Below are positions 2,371 through 37,124 of a DNA stretch of 37,124 nucleotides, one piece after another. The notes under the pieces are model-generated. The model was not told where the DNA came from. It did not search any database and saw only the letters and a list, made by a program, of their open reading frames with translations. This DNA is from Escherichia coli (GTDB lineage Bacteria; Pseudomonadota; Gammaproteobacteria; Enterobacterales; Enterobacteriaceae): the NCBI RefSeq assembly GCF_003334385.1, contig NZ_QOWN01000044.1; one strand, given 5' to 3'. Both the position numbers and the translations under genes were made by a program. The first letter of the stretch is position 1. Each line of letters opens with the position of its first letter.

Positions 2371-4305
2371 ATGTTTCAGGACAACCCGCTGCTAGCGCAG
2401 CTTAAACAGCAACTGCATTCCCAGACGCCACGCGCTGAAGGGGTGGTAAAAGCCACAGAAAAAGGCTTTGGCTTCCTGGAAGTCGACGCGCAAAAAAGTT
2501 ATTTCATTCCGCCGCCGCAGATGAAAAAAGTCATGCATGGCGACCGAATTATCGCGGTGATCCACAGTGAAAAAGAACGTGAATCCGCAGAGCCAGAAGA
2601 ACTGGTTGAACCGTTCCTGACTCGTTTCGTGGGTAAGGTTCAGGGCAAAAATGACCGTCTGGCCATCGTTCCTGATCATCCACTCTTAAAAGACGCCATT
2701 CCTTGCCGCGCAGCCCGTGGCCTGAACCACGAGTTTAAAGAAGGCGACTGGGCGGTTGCCGAAATGCGCCGTCATCCGCTGAAAGGCGATCGTTCTTTCT
2801 ATGCAGAACTGACACAATACATCACTTTTGGTGACGATCACTTTGTACCGTGGTGGGTTACCCTTGCACGCCATAATCTGGAAAAAGAAGCACCAGACGG
2901 CGTCGCTACCGAAATGCTCGATGAAGGTCTGGTTCGTGAAGATCTGACCGCGCTGGATTTTGTCACCATCGACAGTGCCAGCACAGAAGATATGGATGAC
3001 GCCCTTTTCGCTAAGGCGTTGCCGGATGACAAACTTCAGCTGATTGTGGCGATTGCCGATCCAACCGCGTGGATTGCTGAAGGCAGCAAGCTGGACAAAG
3101 CCGCGAAAATTCGCGCATTCACCAACTATCTGCCTGGCTTCAACATCCCTATGCTGCCTCGCGAGCTTTCTGACGATCTCTGCTCACTGCGCGCCAATGA
3201 AGTCCGCCCGGTACTGGCATGCCGCATGACGCTCTCCGCTGATGGCACCATTGAAGATAATATCGAATTCTTTGCCGCCACCATCGAATCCAAAGCAAAG
3301 CTGGTGTATGACCAGGTTTCTGACTGGCTGGAAAATACCGGTGACTGGCAGCCTGAAAGTGAAGCAATTGCCGAACAAGTCCGTTTGCTAGCGCAAATTT
3401 GCCAACGCCGCGGCGAGTGGCGTCATAACCACGCACTGGTGTTTAAAGATCGCCCGGATTACCGCTTTATTCTCGGTGAAAAAGGTGAAGTGCTGGATAT
3501 CGTCGCCGAGCCTCGTCGCATTGCCAACCGTATCGTCGAAGAAGCGATGATTGCCGCTAACATTTGTGCGGCCCGCGTACTGCGCGATAAGCTCGGTTTT
3601 GGCATCTATAACGTGCATATGGGCTTTGATCCGGCGAATGCCGACGCGCTGGCAGCGTTGCTGAAAACGCACGGTCTGCATGTCGATGCCGAAGAAGTGC
3701 TCACGCTGGACGGTTTCTGCAAACTGCGTCGTGAACTGGACGCGCAACCAACTGGTTTCCTCGACAGCCGCATTCGTCGCTTCCAGTCATTTGCTGAAAT
3801 TAGCACTGAACCCGGTCCTCACTTTGGCCTCGGTCTGGAAGCATACGCCACCTGGACTTCGCCGATCCGTAAATATGGCGACATGATCAACCACCGTCTG
3901 CTGAAAGCGGTTATCAAAGGCGAAACTGCGACGCGCCCACAGGATGAAATCACTGTCCAAATGGCCGAGCGTCGCCGTCTCAACCGGATGGCAGAACGTG
4001 ATGTTGGTGACTGGTTATACGCACGCTTCCTGAAAGACAAAGCCGGGACCGACACCCGTTTCGCAGCGGAAATTGTCGATATCAGCCGTGGCGGCATGCG
4101 TGTTCGTTTGGTTGATAACGGCGCTATCGCCTTTATTCCGGCACCTTTCTTACACGCTGTGCGCGATGAACTGGTTTGCAGCCAGGAAAACGGCACTGTA
4201 CAAATTAAAGGTGAAACGGTTTACAAAGTGACTGACGTTATTGACGTCACTATTGCCGAAGTCCGCATGGAAACCCGCAGCATTATTGCGCGCCCGGTCG
4301 CGTAA
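2371..4305 (+). CDS. rnb: Exoribonuclease II (RNase II)
   Basis: 644 aa ORF; N-terminal cold-shock-like region, central RNB catalytic domain and C-terminal S1 domain are recognisable. Length matches RNase II. Confidence 0.95.
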
Positions 4306-4315
4306 TCTCCTTTCA

Positions 4316-4349
4316 CGGCCCATTCCTCATGGATGGGCCGTTTATTTCC
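4316..4349 (+). terminator. Intrinsic terminator after rnb
   Basis: Hairpin CGGCCCAT...ATGGGCCG followed by TTTATTTCC, immediately 3' of the rnb stop. Confidence 0.6.
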
Positions 4350-4540
4350 CCGCTCTACCTTCGTTATATCCAGGCAGATTTTTTAACTGACTTTCGTTTG
4401 AAAACTGGCGTTTTTCCAAAACTGGATTACAAATAAATATATAAAAAAAACAATGCGTTTAGCCGCCGTTAATTTCATGTAAGTCATGTTGTTCCTTTTA
4501 TTTAACCGCGGACTCCGCTGTTAACCGGAGGATATGCATC

Positions 4541-6526
4541 ATGAAAACCGTTAGGGAGTCCACAACGTTGTACAACTTTCTCGGATCGCACAATCCATAC
4601 TGGCGGTTGACGGAAAGCAGCGATGTTTTGCGCTTTTCTACCACCGAAACCACAGAACCTGATCGTACATTGCAGTTATCTGCCGAACAGGCTGCTCGCA
4701 TCAGGGAAATGACGGTCATCACCTCCAGCCTGATGATGAGTCTGACCGTCGATGAAAGCGATCTTTCTGTGCATCTGGTAGGACGAAAAATCAATAAACG
4801 GGAATGGGCTGGCAACGCGTCTGCATGGCATGACACACCGGCGGTTGCTCGTGATTTATCACACGGGCTTTCCTTTGCTGAGCAGGTAGTTTCTGAAGCA
4901 CATTCCGCAATAGTGATTCTCGACAGCCGGGGAAATATCCAACGCTTCAATCGGTTATGTGAAGATTACACAGGGTTGAAAGAACACGACGTCATTGGGC
5001 AAAGCGTGTTTAAACTGTTTATGAGCCGTCGTGAAGCTGCGGCATCCAGGCGCAATAACCGTGTATTTTTTCGAAGCGGCAATGCATATGAAGTCGAACT
5101 GTGGATACCAACATGTAAAGGCCAGCGGCTGTTTCTGTTTCGCAATAAATTTGTCCACAGCGGTAGTGGCAAAAACGAGATTTTTTTAATCTGTTCCGGC
5201 ACCGACATTACCGAAGAGCGCCGCGCTCAGGAGCGACTGCGTATTCTGGCAAATACCGACAGTATCACCGGACTGCCGAATCGTAACGCAATGCAGGATT
5301 TAATCGATCACGCTATTAATCATGCAGATAACAATAAAGTTGGGGTTGTGTATCTTGATTTGGATAATTTCAAAAAGGTCAACGACGCCTATGGGCATTT
5401 GTTTGGTGACCAGTTATTACGCGACGTGTCATTGGCTATTTTAAGCTGTCTCGAACATGACCAGGTGTTGGCGCGTCCAGGTGGGGATGAGTTTCTGGTA
5501 CTGGCATCCAACACCTCACAAAGCGCGCTGGAAGCAATGGCATCACGAATTTTGACCCGCTTACGGCTCCCCTTTCGCATTGGTTTAATTGAAGTTTATA
5601 CCAGCTGTTCAGTAGGTATTGCACTCTCTCCCGAACATGGTTCAGACAGCACGGCTATTATTCGTCACGCCGACACAGCAATGTACACAGCGAAGGAAGG
5701 CGGACGAGGACAATTTTGCGTTTTTACCCCAGAAATGAATCAACGGGTATTTGAATATCTCTGGCTGGATACCAACTTGCGTAAAGCACTGGAAAACGAT
5801 CAGTTGGTTATTCACTATCAACCGAAAATCACCTGGCGTGGCGAAGTGCGCAGTCTGGAAGCACTAGTACGTTGGCAGTCACCTGAACGTGGGTTGATTC
5901 CACCGTTGGACTTCATTTCCTACGCCGAAGAGTCAGGGCTAATTGTGCCTTTAGGCCGTTGGGTGATTCTCGATGTCGTACGCCAGGTGGCAAAGTGGCG
6001 GGATAAAGGCATAAACCTGCGAGTGGCGGTAAATATTTCTGCACGTCAGCTCGCCGATCAAACCATTTTCACCGCCCTGAAACAGGTTCTCCAGGAACTC
6101 AATTTTGAATACTGCCCTATAGATGTTGAACTGACAGAGAGTTGTCTGATTGAGAATGATGAACTGGCACTGTCTGTTATTCAACAATTTAGCCAACTAG
6201 GTGCGCAAGTGCATCTGGATGATTTTGGTACCGGCTACTCTTCACTTTCGCAACTGGCGCGCTTTCCGATCGATGCCATCAAACTTGACCAGGTTTTTGT
6301 TCGAGATATTCACAAACAACCTGTCTCGCAGTCACTGGTCCGGGCGATCGTCGCTGTGGCCCAGGCATTGAATCTTCAGGTGATCGCCGAAGGTGTAGAG
6401 AGTGCAAAGGAAGATGCTTTTTTAACCAAGAACGGGATCAATGAGCGGCAAGGATTTTTGTTTGCCAAACCGATGCCCGCCGTCGCCTTCGAACGCTGGT
6501 ATAAACGCTATCTGAAGCGCGCATAA
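4541..6526 (+). CDS. pdeR: Cyclic-di-GMP phosphodiesterase PdeR (GGDEF-EAL protein, formerly YciR/Gmr)
   Basis: 661 aa ORF with PAS-like region, GGDEF motif intact (ARPGGDEFLVLA) and EAL motif intact (SLEALVRW). Confidence 0.93.
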   Translation: MKTVRESTTLYNFLGSHNPYWRLTESSDVLRFSTTETTEPDRTLQLSAEQAARIREMTVITSSLMMSLTVDESDLSVHLVGRKINKREWAGNASAWHDTPAVARDLSHGLSFAEQVVSEAHSAIVILDSRGNIQRFNRLCEDYTGLKEHDVIGQSVFKLFMSRREAAASRRNNRVFFRSGNAYEVELWIPTCKGQRLFLFRNKFVHSGSGKNEIFLICSGTDITEERRAQERLRILANTDSITGLPNRNAMQDLIDHAINHADNNKVGVVYLDLDNFKKVNDAYGHLFGDQLLRDVSLAILSCLEHDQVLARPGGDEFLVLASNTSQSALEAMASRILTRLRLPFRIGLIEVYTSCSVGIALSPEHGSDSTAIIRHADTAMYTAKEGGRGQFCVFTPEMNQRVFEYLWLDTNLRKALENDQLVIHYQPKITWRGEVRSLEALVRWQSPERGLIPPLDFISYAEESGLIVPLGRWVILDVVRQVAKWRDKGINLRVAVNISARQLADQTIFTALKQVLQELNFEYCPIDVELTESCLIENDELALSVIQQFSQLGAQVHLDDFGTGYSSLSQLARFPIDAIKLDQVFVRDIHKQPVSQSLVRAIVAVAQALNLQVIAEGVESAKEDAFLTKNGINERQGFLFAKPMPAVAFERWYKRYLKRA

Positions 6527-6673
6527 GTAGATGAATATATATACTTAGCGCTATATCCCGTCATTATATATCGTATTCCTGGATGATAATTAGCCGTTGC
6601 TGTTAAACACTTCTCTTTTAGCGGCAATTTTTGCATTATTCATTTTCCCCCTTTTGCTATAAGGATGTCCTTG

Positions 6674-6847
6674 ATGTCTGAATTTGATGCCCAGCGCGTT
6701 GCCGAACGTATTGATATTGTGTTAGATATCCTTGTGGCAGGCGATTACCACTCTGCGATCCATAATCTCGAGATACTTAAAGCAGAACTCTTGCGCCAGG
6801 TTGCTGAATCTACGCCAGACATCCCGAAGGCACCGTGGGAGATTTAA
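6674..6847 (+). CDS. yciZ: Small protein YciZ (UPF0509 family)
   Basis: 57 aa from the second in-frame ATG ([26 protein letters not shown]...). AAGGA at 6661-6665 sits about 8 nt upstream of this ATG. The ORF-track start at 6665 is 3 codons further upstream. Confidence 0.75.
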
Positions 6848-15452: not shown

Positions 15453-15615
15453 AGCTCCTCCTTAATGACAGGGTTGCGAAGCCCTGATTCTCTTCAGGGT
15501 GAATATTAAAGATAACACAAACATCGCGTAACGATTTGATAACAACCCAAATTGATAAAAGAGGAGAAACCTTGTGGCAAAGCAAATGACAACCCCGCCG
15601 CAGCGGGGTCAAGGA

Positions 15616-15696
15616 TCAGTGAGTAATGATCCAGAGGAGTTCGGCCCAGAAGAGCATCGACAGAGAAAACGCGCCCATCCAGGACCAATATTTCAT
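15616..15696 (-). CDS. Candidate small hydrophobic protein upstream of acnA (26 aa, MKYWSWMGAFSLSMLFWAELLWIITH)
   Basis: ATG-initiated 26-codon ORF on the acnA strand in the acnA leader region. Predicted single transmembrane helix. Below the 60-aa track cutoff; may be a real small protein or a chance ORF. Confidence 0.3.
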   Translation of the reverse strand: MKYWSWMGAFSLSMLFWAELLWIITH

Positions 15697-15824
15697 ATTT
15701 GTGTTGATCATAGGCTACACCCTTAACGGTTATTATTTTGTGTTGAGATAACTCAAGCTGTTATTGCTGCGGTGTATTAAAAGCCCTTTAATTCATTAAA
15801 AATGGGTAATAAGAATGATGATAA

Positions 15825-28200: not shown

Positions 28201-28245
28201 ATGAAAGCAATTTTCGTACTGAAAGGTTGGTGGCGCACTTCCTGA
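28201..28245 (+). CDS. trpL: trp operon leader peptide
   Basis: 14-codon [17 protein letters not shown] with tandem Trp codons at 28228-28233; classical attenuation leader. Confidence 0.95.
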
Positions 28246-28287
28246 AACGGGCAGTGTATTCACCATGCGTAAAGCAATCAGATACCC

Positions 28288-28315
28288 AGCCCGCCTAATG
28301 AGCGGGCTTTTTTTT
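28288..28315 (+). terminator. trp attenuator (3:4 terminator hairpin plus U-tract)
   Basis: AGCCCGCC-taat-GAGCGGGCT followed by TTTTTTTT, upstream of trpE. Confidence 0.93.
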
Positions 28316-36058: not shown

Positions 36059-36565
36059 ATGAATCGTATTGAACATTATCATGACTGGTTACGTGACGCC
36101 CACGCAATGGAAAAGCAAGCCGAATCTATGCTTGAATCCATGGCCAGCCGTATAGATAATTATCCTGAACTACGCGCTCGTATTGAACAACATCTTAGTG
36201 AAACCAAAAACCAGATTGTTCAACTGGAAACTATTCTTGATCGTAATGACATTTCACGTTCAGTCATTAAAGATTCCATGAGTAAAATGGCTGCGCTTGG
36301 GCAGTCAATCGGTGGTATATTCCCTTCTGATGAAATAGTCAAAGGCTCTATTAGCGGATATGTCTTCGAGCAATTTGAAATCGCCTGTTACACCTCACTA
36401 TTAGCAGCAGCAAAAAATGCCGGTGATACAGCTTCAATTCCAACCATCGAAGCGATTTTAAATGAGGAAAAGCAAATGGCCGACTGGCTGATTCAGAATA
36501 TTCCGCAAACAACTGAGAAATTTTTAATTCGCTCTGAAACTGATGGCGTAGAAGCGAAGAAATAA
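36059..36565 (+). CDS. yciE: Ferritin-like DUF892 protein YciE
   Basis: 168 aa; paralogous in fold to YciF. AAGAGGA upstream of the ATG. Confidence 0.9.
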   Translation: MNRIEHYHDWLRDAHAMEKQAESMLESMASRIDNYPELRARIEQHLSETKNQIVQLETILDRNDISRSVIKDSMSKMAALGQSIGGIFPSDEIVKGSISGYVFEQFEIACYTSLLAAAKNAGDTASIPTIEAILNEEKQMADWLIQNIPQTTEKFLIRSETDGVEAKK

Positions 36566-36589
36566 TACCCTTTATACCATGTCCTTATT

Positions 36590-36618
36590 GACCCCGTATA
36601 TTACGGGGTCGTTTTTGT
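36590..36618. terminator. Bidirectional terminator between yciE and the ompW remnant
   Basis: GACCCCGTA-tat-TACGGGGTC followed by GTTTTTGTG, between the two convergent stop codons. Confidence 0.7.
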
Positions 36619-36624
36619 GCGGAA

Positions 36625-36741
36625 TTAAAAACGATATCCTGCTGAGAACATAAACACCCACGGATCGAGGCGTACGCTATCGTGTTGCTGTGCACCGCCC
36701 AGCTTATAATTGGCGGTGGTATCGATATCCATGTACCACAC
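36625..36741 (-). pseudogene. ompW: 3'-terminal fragment of outer membrane protein W gene (last ~38 codons only)
   Basis: Minus-strand frame encodes ...VWYMDIDTTANYKLGGAQQHDSVRLDPWVFMFSAGYRF-stop, matching the OmpW C-terminus as I remember it. Upstream of codon V the frame diverges (HIFYNLP instead of DWLVNMS), hits a TAA within 12 codons, and the DNA becomes AT-rich and non-coding. Confidence 0.6.
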
Positions 36742-36838
36742 TGGTAGATTATAAAAAATGTGATAAACAGCTATTTATAAAAGGAAAAACAAACTTTTAT
36801 GGTGATTTTTCATACCGTTTTTCTGTGTTTTTAACTGA

Positions 36839-37066
36839 TTGATTTTGTTAAAGTCTTTTTTTGTTTTGCAGAGGCTTATCCCCCCTTATAGTCATTCCAT
36901 AACTAACGGATATGACCATGTGGACGTGATTGTCAGAACCACCAGCAATGATGGACTCACCATTTTAAGAGTTGTAAATAAAGAATCCGCGCACGAATTT
37001 GTACAGGAAACGCTGCAGGAAGCCTGGGAAACCGCTGAACTGCTTTATCCAATAACGCGATCATAA
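36839..37066 (+). CDS. Hypothetical ORF in the non-ompW DNA beyond the truncation point
   Basis: 75-codon open frame with no in-frame ATG; candidate starts are TTG 36839 or GTG 36920, neither with a good Shine-Dalgarno. Product (...VDVIVRTTSNDGLTILRVVNKESAHEFVQETLQEAWETAELLYPITRS) is not one I recognise. May be non-coding. Confidence 0.2.
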   Translation: MILLKSFFVLQRLIPPYSHSITNGYDHVDVIVRTTSNDGLTILRVVNKESAHEFVQETLQEAWETAELLYPITRS

Positions 37067-37124
37067 TCACGGCAATAACATATTTTTTATGACATTATCC
37101 GTCATGTATGACATAACAACTATC

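Follow-up and report, generated by a model that had tools for sequence, protein, structure and literature searches.

An intact, reference-type pdeR gene in Escherichia coli encodes a protein identical to the K-12 trigger phosphodiesterase PdeR

The window (the whole stretch of E. coli DNA analysed here, 37,124 nucleotides) corresponds over its full 37 kb, at 99.978% identity, to the part of the E. coli SCU-104 chromosome that runs from fabI to the trp operon and yciE. Comparison of its open reading frames (ORFs) with annotations gives the gene order rnb-pdeR-yciZ-yciT-osmB, as in both K-12 and SCU-104, with rnb (RNase II, positions 2371-4305) upstream of pdeR and the genes of YciZ, YciT and OsmB downstream. 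In the ORF listing of the window, pdeR (yciR, gmr) is a single ORF on the plus strand that begins with ATG and comprises 661 codons and a stop, and a GGAGG ribosome-binding site lies about 10 nt 5' of the start codon. The features of the gene and its flanks are the following:

4315-4341, plus strand: terminator-like hairpin found by the terminator scan, with an 11-bp stem, 7 G-C pairs and a T-rich tail
4383-4487, minus strand: ymiB, small ORF between rnb and pdeR, placed by transfer of its annotated K-12 coordinates
4541-6526, plus strand: pdeR (yciR, gmr) coding sequence, from K-12 identity, NF007474 and RefSeq annotation
4541-4825, plus strand: N-terminal FI-like domain, aa 1-95, from homology to the RpfF-interaction (FI) domain of RpfR
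4883-5212, plus strand: PAS domain, aa 115-224, from homology to the BDSF-binding PAS of RpfR
5099-5101, plus strand: codon 187, CTG (Leu), at the site of the BDSF-contacting Arg187, from the ungapped alignment with 6dgg
5249-5710, plus strand: GGDEF domain, aa 237-390, Pfam PF00990, E=3.9e-46
5774-6472, plus strand: EAL domain, aa 412-644, Pfam PF00563, E=2.1e-67
6508-6636, minus strand: ymiD, small ORF of 42 aa, from the RefSeq annotation under the match and from translation

The hairpin, which sits just 3' of the rnb stop codon (4305) and upstream of pdeR, is the sole clear signal of the promoter and terminator scan; the promoter scan itself returned 3 matches against 3.9 expected from shuffled sequence. 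The ymiB reading frame has a counterpart in SCU-104, the same 105-nt ORF, annotated there as "hypothetical protein".

The identity of the gene was addressed at several levels. In a direct alignment with the corresponding region of K-12 MG1655 (b1285), 661 of 661 residues are identical, and full-length comparison revealed no frameshift, premature stop or substitution relative to K-12 PdeR. Both genes measure 1986 nt and differ at two nucleotides, each of them synonymous: gene position 393 (window 4933), an A that is G in K-12, and gene position 624 (window 5164), a T that is C in K-12. The protein also matches the NCBIfam equivalog NF007474 (PRK10060, cyclic di-GMP phosphodiesterase) with 1338.5 bits, well over the curated cut-off of 782, through aa 1-660 aligned to profile positions 1-660 of 663, while the second-best equivalog, DibA, reaches 416 bits and stays below its cut-off of 980. 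The gene is annotated as pdeR in all matching RefSeq genomes. More broadly, of 5426 complete E. coli genomes, 5423 gave a megablast match to the gene, at 95-100% nucleotide identity and nearly always as one chromosomal copy bearing the annotation pdeR. The sequence holds nothing counter to this identification, and it is practically certain that positions 4541-6526 are the chromosomal E. coli pdeR gene and that its product, identical to that of K-12, acts as a trigger phosphodiesterase. A preliminary description of this DNA had already recognized the gene as pdeR and had proposed an alignment with the K-12 protein as a check; this alignment shows zero substitutions, the catalytic residues of the EAL domain included. 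The same description rated the locus as being of routine interest, a fair assessment; the allele is the reference one, and the gene belongs to the E. coli core and is already known and well characterised.

PdeR is built from four domains, namely an FI-like N-terminal domain followed by PAS, GGDEF and EAL domains. No Pfam family covers the N-terminal domain (aa 1-95), and the PAS domain is matched by PAS_9 over aa 123-225 (E=1.5e-8). For the two catalytic domains, the Pfam E-values listed above place the GGDEF and EAL motifs far beyond chance matches. Solved homologues and the identity with K-12 were used in place of structure prediction or fold search. The identity of the gene, its domain layout, its intact motifs, its context and its near-universal presence in E. 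coli were established in this analysis. The Hengge laboratory, the intact motif notwithstanding, denotes this layout PAS-GGDEF(deg)-EAL (PMC5635695).

Both signature motifs reported within 4541-6526 by the preliminary description are indeed there. The GGDEF motif occupies residues 314-318 (nt 5480-5494), inside the segment ARPGGDEFLVLA, which begins at residue 311, and the domain has a canonical A-site. Residues R248, D273, K278, N281, D290, R312, K385 and R389 are present and the DxD-FKxxND positions are occupied; R248, DxD-FKxxND, R312, K385 and R389 presumably correspond to the GTP-binding positions of PleD. An RxxD inhibitory I-site, located five residues upstream of GGDEF, is typical of diguanylate cyclases but not obligatory. 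In PdeR the RxxD site is absent, the nine residues before GGDEF being EHDQVLARP, and PMC3715855 likewise describes the protein as being without an I-site. Pro313, the residue just before GGDEF, was considered as a possible peculiarity of E. coli at an otherwise conserved position and rejected: the position varies, being H, L or F in 106 orthologue clusters and S in E. marmotae, and is uninformative.

The properties of this domain were studied in K-12, where YciR binds GTP through the GGDEF domain in a manner that depends on the GGDEF motif and on R248; Lindenberg et al. mutated the latter and thereby abolished GTP binding (PMC3715855). When purified YciR was incubated with GTP, c-di-GMP was undetectable and traces of pGpG appeared occasionally, with very fresh preparations, which the authors interpreted as very weak cyclase activity hidden behind the phosphodiesterase (PMC3715855). 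Because of this absence of detectable c-di-GMP and the merely occasional pGpG, PdeR is not filed here as a functional cyclase. A review from the same laboratory further pointed out that cellular GTP greatly exceeds the Km of diguanylate cyclases, which makes such enzymes unlikely GTP sensors (PMC5052742, 2016). The suggestion of the preliminary description that the domain is GTP-sensing rather than cyclase-active thus comes close and is slightly overstated: GTP binding and no more than trace cyclase activity agree with PMC3715855, whereas sensing goes beyond the published data.

The EAL motif lies at residues 440-442 (nt 5858-5866), within SLEALVRW, which starts at residue 438, and extends to EALVR at residues 440-444 (nt 5858-5872). 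Further motifs of the domain are N498, ELTE (530-533), the loop 6 sequence DDFGTGYSS (560-568, nt 6218-6244), K581-L-D583, EGVE with the catalytic base (617-620, nt 6389-6400) and Q637. The list of EAL signature residues is established from RocR and TBD1265, and in PdeR the set is complete, with EAL(xR), Asn, ExxE, DDFGTGYSS, KxD, EGVE and QG. This motif content is what would be expected of a catalytically competent phosphodiesterase. In YciR, the consensus catalytic motifs according to Cimdins et al. include E530LTE, K581 and E617GVE (PMC5635171), and hydrolysis of c-di-GMP by K-12 YciR has been measured and requires the EAL motif (PMC3715855).

Among solved structures, the best match across both catalytic domains is MorA of P. 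aeruginosa (PA4601, PDB 4rnh), a GGDEF-EAL enzyme with phosphodiesterase activity, aligned over aa 236-654 with E=2.2e-102. PdeR and MorA 4rnh have in common GGDEF, EALxR, ELTES, DDFGTGYSS, KxD, EGVE and QG, and they carry the same residue at every EAL signature position. The Asp pair of DDFGTGYSS, aligned with D560-D561 of PdeR, is replaced by Asn-Asn in the mutant structure 4rnf of MorA. The two proteins differ in their N-terminal sensor modules, and the PDB lists MorA as a motility regulator. Direct inhibitory binding to a macromolecular target, relieved when c-di-GMP is bound and degraded, is a trait of the trigger phosphodiesterases PdeR and PdeL, exerted on DgcM and MlrA in the case of K-12 PdeR (PMC3715855; PMC5052742), whereas trigger-type protein partners of MorA were not found in the sources consulted.

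Because the protein is identical to that of K-12, the published biochemistry of PdeR holds directly for the present allele; its enzymatic activities, its GTP binding and its trigger mechanism are carried over from the literature on the K-12 protein. A trigger phosphodiesterase model has been put forward for PdeR (PMC5052742). YciR acts on the cyclase YdaM (DgcM) as a stoichiometric inhibitor, also in its AAL mutant form, and antagonises MlrA (PMC3715855), and PdeR is one of the five interaction hubs of the GGDEF/EAL network of E. coli (PMC5635695). On this basis, the EAL domain encoded in the window binds c-di-GMP and hydrolyses it to pGpG/GMP, and the GGDEF domain, with its intact A-site and without an I-site, binds GTP and produces at most traces of c-di-GMP. 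In the model, DgcM and MlrA are kept inactive by PdeR at low c-di-GMP. Once DgcE raises the level of c-di-GMP, PdeR is taken up with its binding and breakdown, DgcM and MlrA are released, and csgD and curli transcription is turned on (PMC5052742). Partners such as dgcM and mlrA lie outside the window, and the strain background could lack them.

The effect of yciR on the rdar biofilm varies by strain (PMC5635171). The claim of an influence of strain variants on curli and biofilm regulation is borne out by the same study, in which the substitutions C192R, T37I, A361S and T371A as well as nonsense alleles with their truncations, from commensal and uropathogenic E. coli, alter rdar biofilm regulation, while strain Fec10 has the K-12 form of YciR, which is fully functional (PMC5635171). 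The allele of the window is the K-12/Fec10 allele, with C192, unlike the substituted or prematurely stopped YciR alleles. Of 5421 records, 2232 contain an exact match to a 35-nt probe covering codons 182-192, and six divergent E. coli alleles were drawn from the probe classes with 1 and 2 mismatches. All six carry C192R, encoded by CGT or CGC, and T37I, A361S, T371A and other substitutions are also present among them. A disrupted gene was seen in the O157:H7 strain PV15-279, where IS1203 interrupts pdeR and the frame is lost after residue 457. The analysis confirms for the present strain an intact component of the curli and biofilm switch, in the reference form of a core E. coli gene, which has little wider import; this is in contrast with strains in which truncated, IS-disrupted or substituted pdeR alleles change rdar biofilm behaviour.

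The N-terminal part of PdeR relates it to another system. RpfR, the receptor of BDSF (cis-2-dodecenoic acid) in Burkholderia cenocepacia and Cronobacter turicensis, has the same FI-PAS-GGDEF-EAL layout, although the known partners are DgcM and MlrA for E. coli PdeR and RpfF for RpfR. With phmmer, aa 4-95 of PdeR align without gaps and in the same numbering to residues 4-95 of PDB 6dga, the FI domain of Cronobacter RpfR (E=2.5e-19), with 39 of 92 residues identical (about 42%). Likewise, aa 115-224 align ungapped and in the same numbering to PDB 6dgg, the BDSF-binding PAS domain (E=1.9e-51), at an identity of 79% (87/110). The orthology of PdeR and RpfR and the lack of RpfF in E. coli are already in the literature: E. 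coli is counted among the species with RpfR (PMC6361424) and PdeR is called an RpfR orthologue (PMC7474642).

The residues of RpfR that contact BDSF are S169, N172, Y183, R187 and N202 in Cronobacter numbering, and Arg187 forms a hydrogen bond with the BDSF carboxylate (PMC6361424). In B. cenocepacia, the rpfR mutations S168A, N171A, R186A and N201A changed biofilm fitness, R186A (the equivalent of R187) in the manner expected for reduced BDSF sensing (PMC6361424). PdeR keeps four of these five residues, S169, N172, Y183 and N202, and has Leu187 in the place of the arginine, within YEVELW compared with YEVERW in 6dgg. Leu187 is shared by the six divergent alleles of E. coli, with codon CTG or CTA, and by every protein cluster of at least 98% identity that covers the site. 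For the wider comparison, a first homologue search with the N-terminal 240 aa yielded truncated or frameshifted calls of at most 414 aa, which were used for residue 187 alone, and a second search with full-length PdeR served for full-length comparison. Relatives that are 93-94% identical to PdeR have Arg187, and E. marmotae has Ile187. E. fergusonii combines Arg187 with Trp183, Salmonella-like sequences combine Arg187 with Tyr172, and Citrobacter sequences have all five contact residues, save for Leu187 in three clusters. Even among homologues as distant as 41% identity, some of them named Paraburkholderia, Achromobacter and Janthinobacterium, Arg187 is nearly universal. In the literature consulted, no discussion of the change from Arg187 to Leu in E. 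coli was found.

The genomic context of the receptor gene was compared over a synteny sample of eight loci. In enterobacteria that bear rpfF, rpfR occupies the same chromosomal slot 3' of rnb as pdeR does in E. coli. Two enterobacterial contigs (L005 and L014), the pdeR orthologues of which are 78-80% identical, harbor between the receptor gene and yciZ a convergent gene of 289 aa belonging to the crotonase family (ECH_1, RpfF family). In place of rpfF, the window has a spacer of 138 nt from the pdeR stop to yciZ, and the slot is likewise without rpfF in E. marmotae, E. fergusonii, C. freundii and two contigs, one Escherichia-like (94% identical) and one Salmonella-like. No rpfF or remnant of it was detected in the window, where tblastn of an enterobacterial RpfF gave a best E-value of 0.04 at an unrelated place. 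Compared domain by domain with the rpfF-carrying enterobacteria, E. coli PdeR is 47% identical in the FI domain, 80-81% in PAS, 75-76% in GGDEF and 90-93% in EAL. A one-to-one correspondence between Leu187 and the loss of rpfF was rejected, given that C. freundii, E. fergusonii and rpfF-less relatives of 93-94% identity keep Arg187. A looser statement holds, namely that the contact residues vary within the rpfF-less clade, and this pattern, in what is a small sample, is consistent with selection on the sensor module having been relaxed or redirected once rpfF was lost.

These observations lead us to advance, tentatively and as a reading that we place on the doubtful side, that PdeR is an "orphaned" RpfR. 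According to this scenario, rpfF would have been lost from an rnb-rpfR-rpfF-yciZ arrangement and the pocket would then have lost the carboxylate-clamping Arg187, so that the PAS domain may be without BDSF sensing or may sense another ligand, and the fast-diverging FI domain may have been freed for the trigger function with DgcM and MlrA. A competing reading is that PdeR is still a receptor of RpfR type, in which a cis-2 fatty acid (DSF/BDSF), foreign or endogenous, binds the PAS domain, stimulates the EAL domain and constitutes an extra trigger input. Clear homology links the N-terminal and PAS domains to the solved FI and PAS structures of RpfR, four of the five contact residues are kept, E. 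coli is counted among the RpfR species (PMC6361424) and PdeR is called an RpfR orthologue (PMC7474642), all of which speaks for a receptor. However, the synthase gene rpfF, present in the syntenic slot of other enterobacteria, is missing there and from the whole window, every E. coli allele examined has Leu instead of the carboxylate-binding Arg187, and no BDSF response of E. coli PdeR was found in the literature; we therefore regard a retained fatty acid receptor as unlikely. Should the replacement of Arg187 by Leu disable or retune fatty-acid sensing, it would help to explain why the input of the PdeR PAS domain has stayed elusive, and L187R would be a simple mutational handle on fatty-acid sensing by PdeR.

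Two other roles have to be weighed against that of a trigger phosphodiesterase. PdeR could be truly bifunctional, its GGDEF domain making relevant amounts of c-di-GMP in some condition, for instance when a PAS signal shuts off the EAL domain, as might be suggested by the canonical A-site with its occupied positions, the GTP binding and the pGpG traces formed from GTP. This is very improbable in view of the purified protein, which gave no detectable c-di-GMP from GTP, of the high curli production that follows deletion of the gene, as for a phosphodiesterase or inhibitor (PMC5052742), and of the label GGDEF(deg) assigned to the domain by the Hengge laboratory. The older gene name gmr implies a main role in modulating the stability of RNase II, the product of the adjacent rnb gene, and orthologues are indeed named "RNase II stability modulator", "modulator of Rnase II stability" or "Gmr" in databases. 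The adjacency of rnb and pdeR is kept at every locus examined, in E. coli, in Citrobacter and in rpfF-carrying enterobacteria, but conserved adjacency alone does not demonstrate a functional link, and the strong terminator-like hairpin stands between the two genes. Moreover, the literature consulted offers no mechanism by which PdeR would act on RNase II, whereas the role in curli and CsgD control is backed by genetics and biochemistry (PMC3715855; PMC5052742), which makes RNase II modulation quite improbable as the main function. The trigger phosphodiesterase remains the reading that we retain for this gene.

The small ORF ymiD, which K-12 shares together with ymiB, lies convergent with pdeR and overlaps its last 19 nt. 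It was considered as a possible relic of rpfF and rejected, as tblastn of the RpfF of L005 (289 aa) against positions 6451-6700 and the whole window gave matches at chance level. In the DNA comparison at ymiD, homology is limited to the 3' end of pdeR and the region upstream of yciZ. The Pfam family of YmiD, PF23497, also matches an ORF at the same position in E. marmotae.

In other enterobacteria, represented by the contigs L005 and L014, which carry 78-80% identical pdeR orthologues, a convergent rpfF gene (the BDSF synthase gene) separates the pdeR orthologue from yciZ, whereas E. coli presents only a short spacer at this place. No remnant of rpfF was detectable in the E. coli pdeR-yciZ spacer (window 6527-6664).

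Window 6527-6664: pdeR-yciZ spacer, 138 nt
L005 7989-8858 and L014 6989-7858: rpfF, crotonase family, 289 aa, convergent, between the pdeR orthologue and yciZ
Window 5099-5101: pdeR codon 187, Leu at the position of R187 of RpfR
Window 5114-5116: pdeR codon 192, TGT, encoding Cys192 in the window and in K-12

In RpfR, the BDSF receptor orthologous to PdeR, R187 acts as a clamp on the carboxylate of BDSF. Leu187 was found in all E. coli PdeR alleles examined, by comparison with the loci L004, L005, L012, L014 and L016-L018, and outside E. coli this position is occupied by Arg in nearly all homologues. Other residues at the BDSF contact positions were observed in sister lineages devoid of rpfF, namely I187 in E. 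marmotae, W183 in E. fergusonii and Y172 in a Salmonella-like locus. Regarding codon 192, Arg192 is present in all six divergent E. coli alleles fetched as well as in most orthologues, and Cys192 thus looks like the derived state. A 35-mer with the TGT codon was matched exactly in 2232 of 5421 records, and C192R was among the substitutions studied previously (PMC5635171).

The pdeR gene of one O157:H7 genome, PV15-279, is annotated as a pseudogene and lacks most of the EAL domain.

L006 (E. coli O157:H7 PV15-279) 959-2329 and 2372 onward: pdeR split by IS1203 (IS3-family)
L011 (EPEC1, a derivative of EPEC O127:H6) 198-656: IS200C between rnb and pdeR
Window 4315-4341, plus strand: strong terminator-like hairpin, 11-bp stem and T-rich tail, directly after rnb
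Window 4383-4487, minus strand: ymiB, inside the rnb-pdeR spacer
Window 6508-6636, minus strand: ymiD, 42 aa, overlapping the final 19 nt of pdeR

The hairpin suggests that pdeR is transcribed largely independently, i.e., on its own. The annotated small ORFs ymiD and ymiB lie on either side of pdeR, both on the opposite strand, and the Pfam family PF23497 also matches ymiD in E. marmotae.

The far end of the window (36560-37124) is a prophage junction in ompW, with 99.5% identity to the terminal stretch of phage P-EibA (ECOR-9) and, across 312 nt, about 90% identity to "PPompW" prophages, whose annotation labels the matching region a duplication due to insertion. In the SCU-104 chromosome, the sole ompW piece annotated here is a 126-nt fragment, followed by a gene encoding a YadA-C-terminal-domain (Eib-like) protein and by an S6-family autotransporter peptidase.

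Window about 36625-36750: ompW fragment
Window 15582-15784, minus strand: enterobacterial sRNA STnc180, Rfam match (198 bits, E=2e-41)
Window 28222-28315, plus strand: Trp operon leader/attenuator, Rfam RF00513 (93 bits)

The STnc180 match, upstream of acnA, falls at the same place as ymiC, which is annotated as a gene for a small membrane protein. The Trp leader precedes trpEDCBA, as expected.
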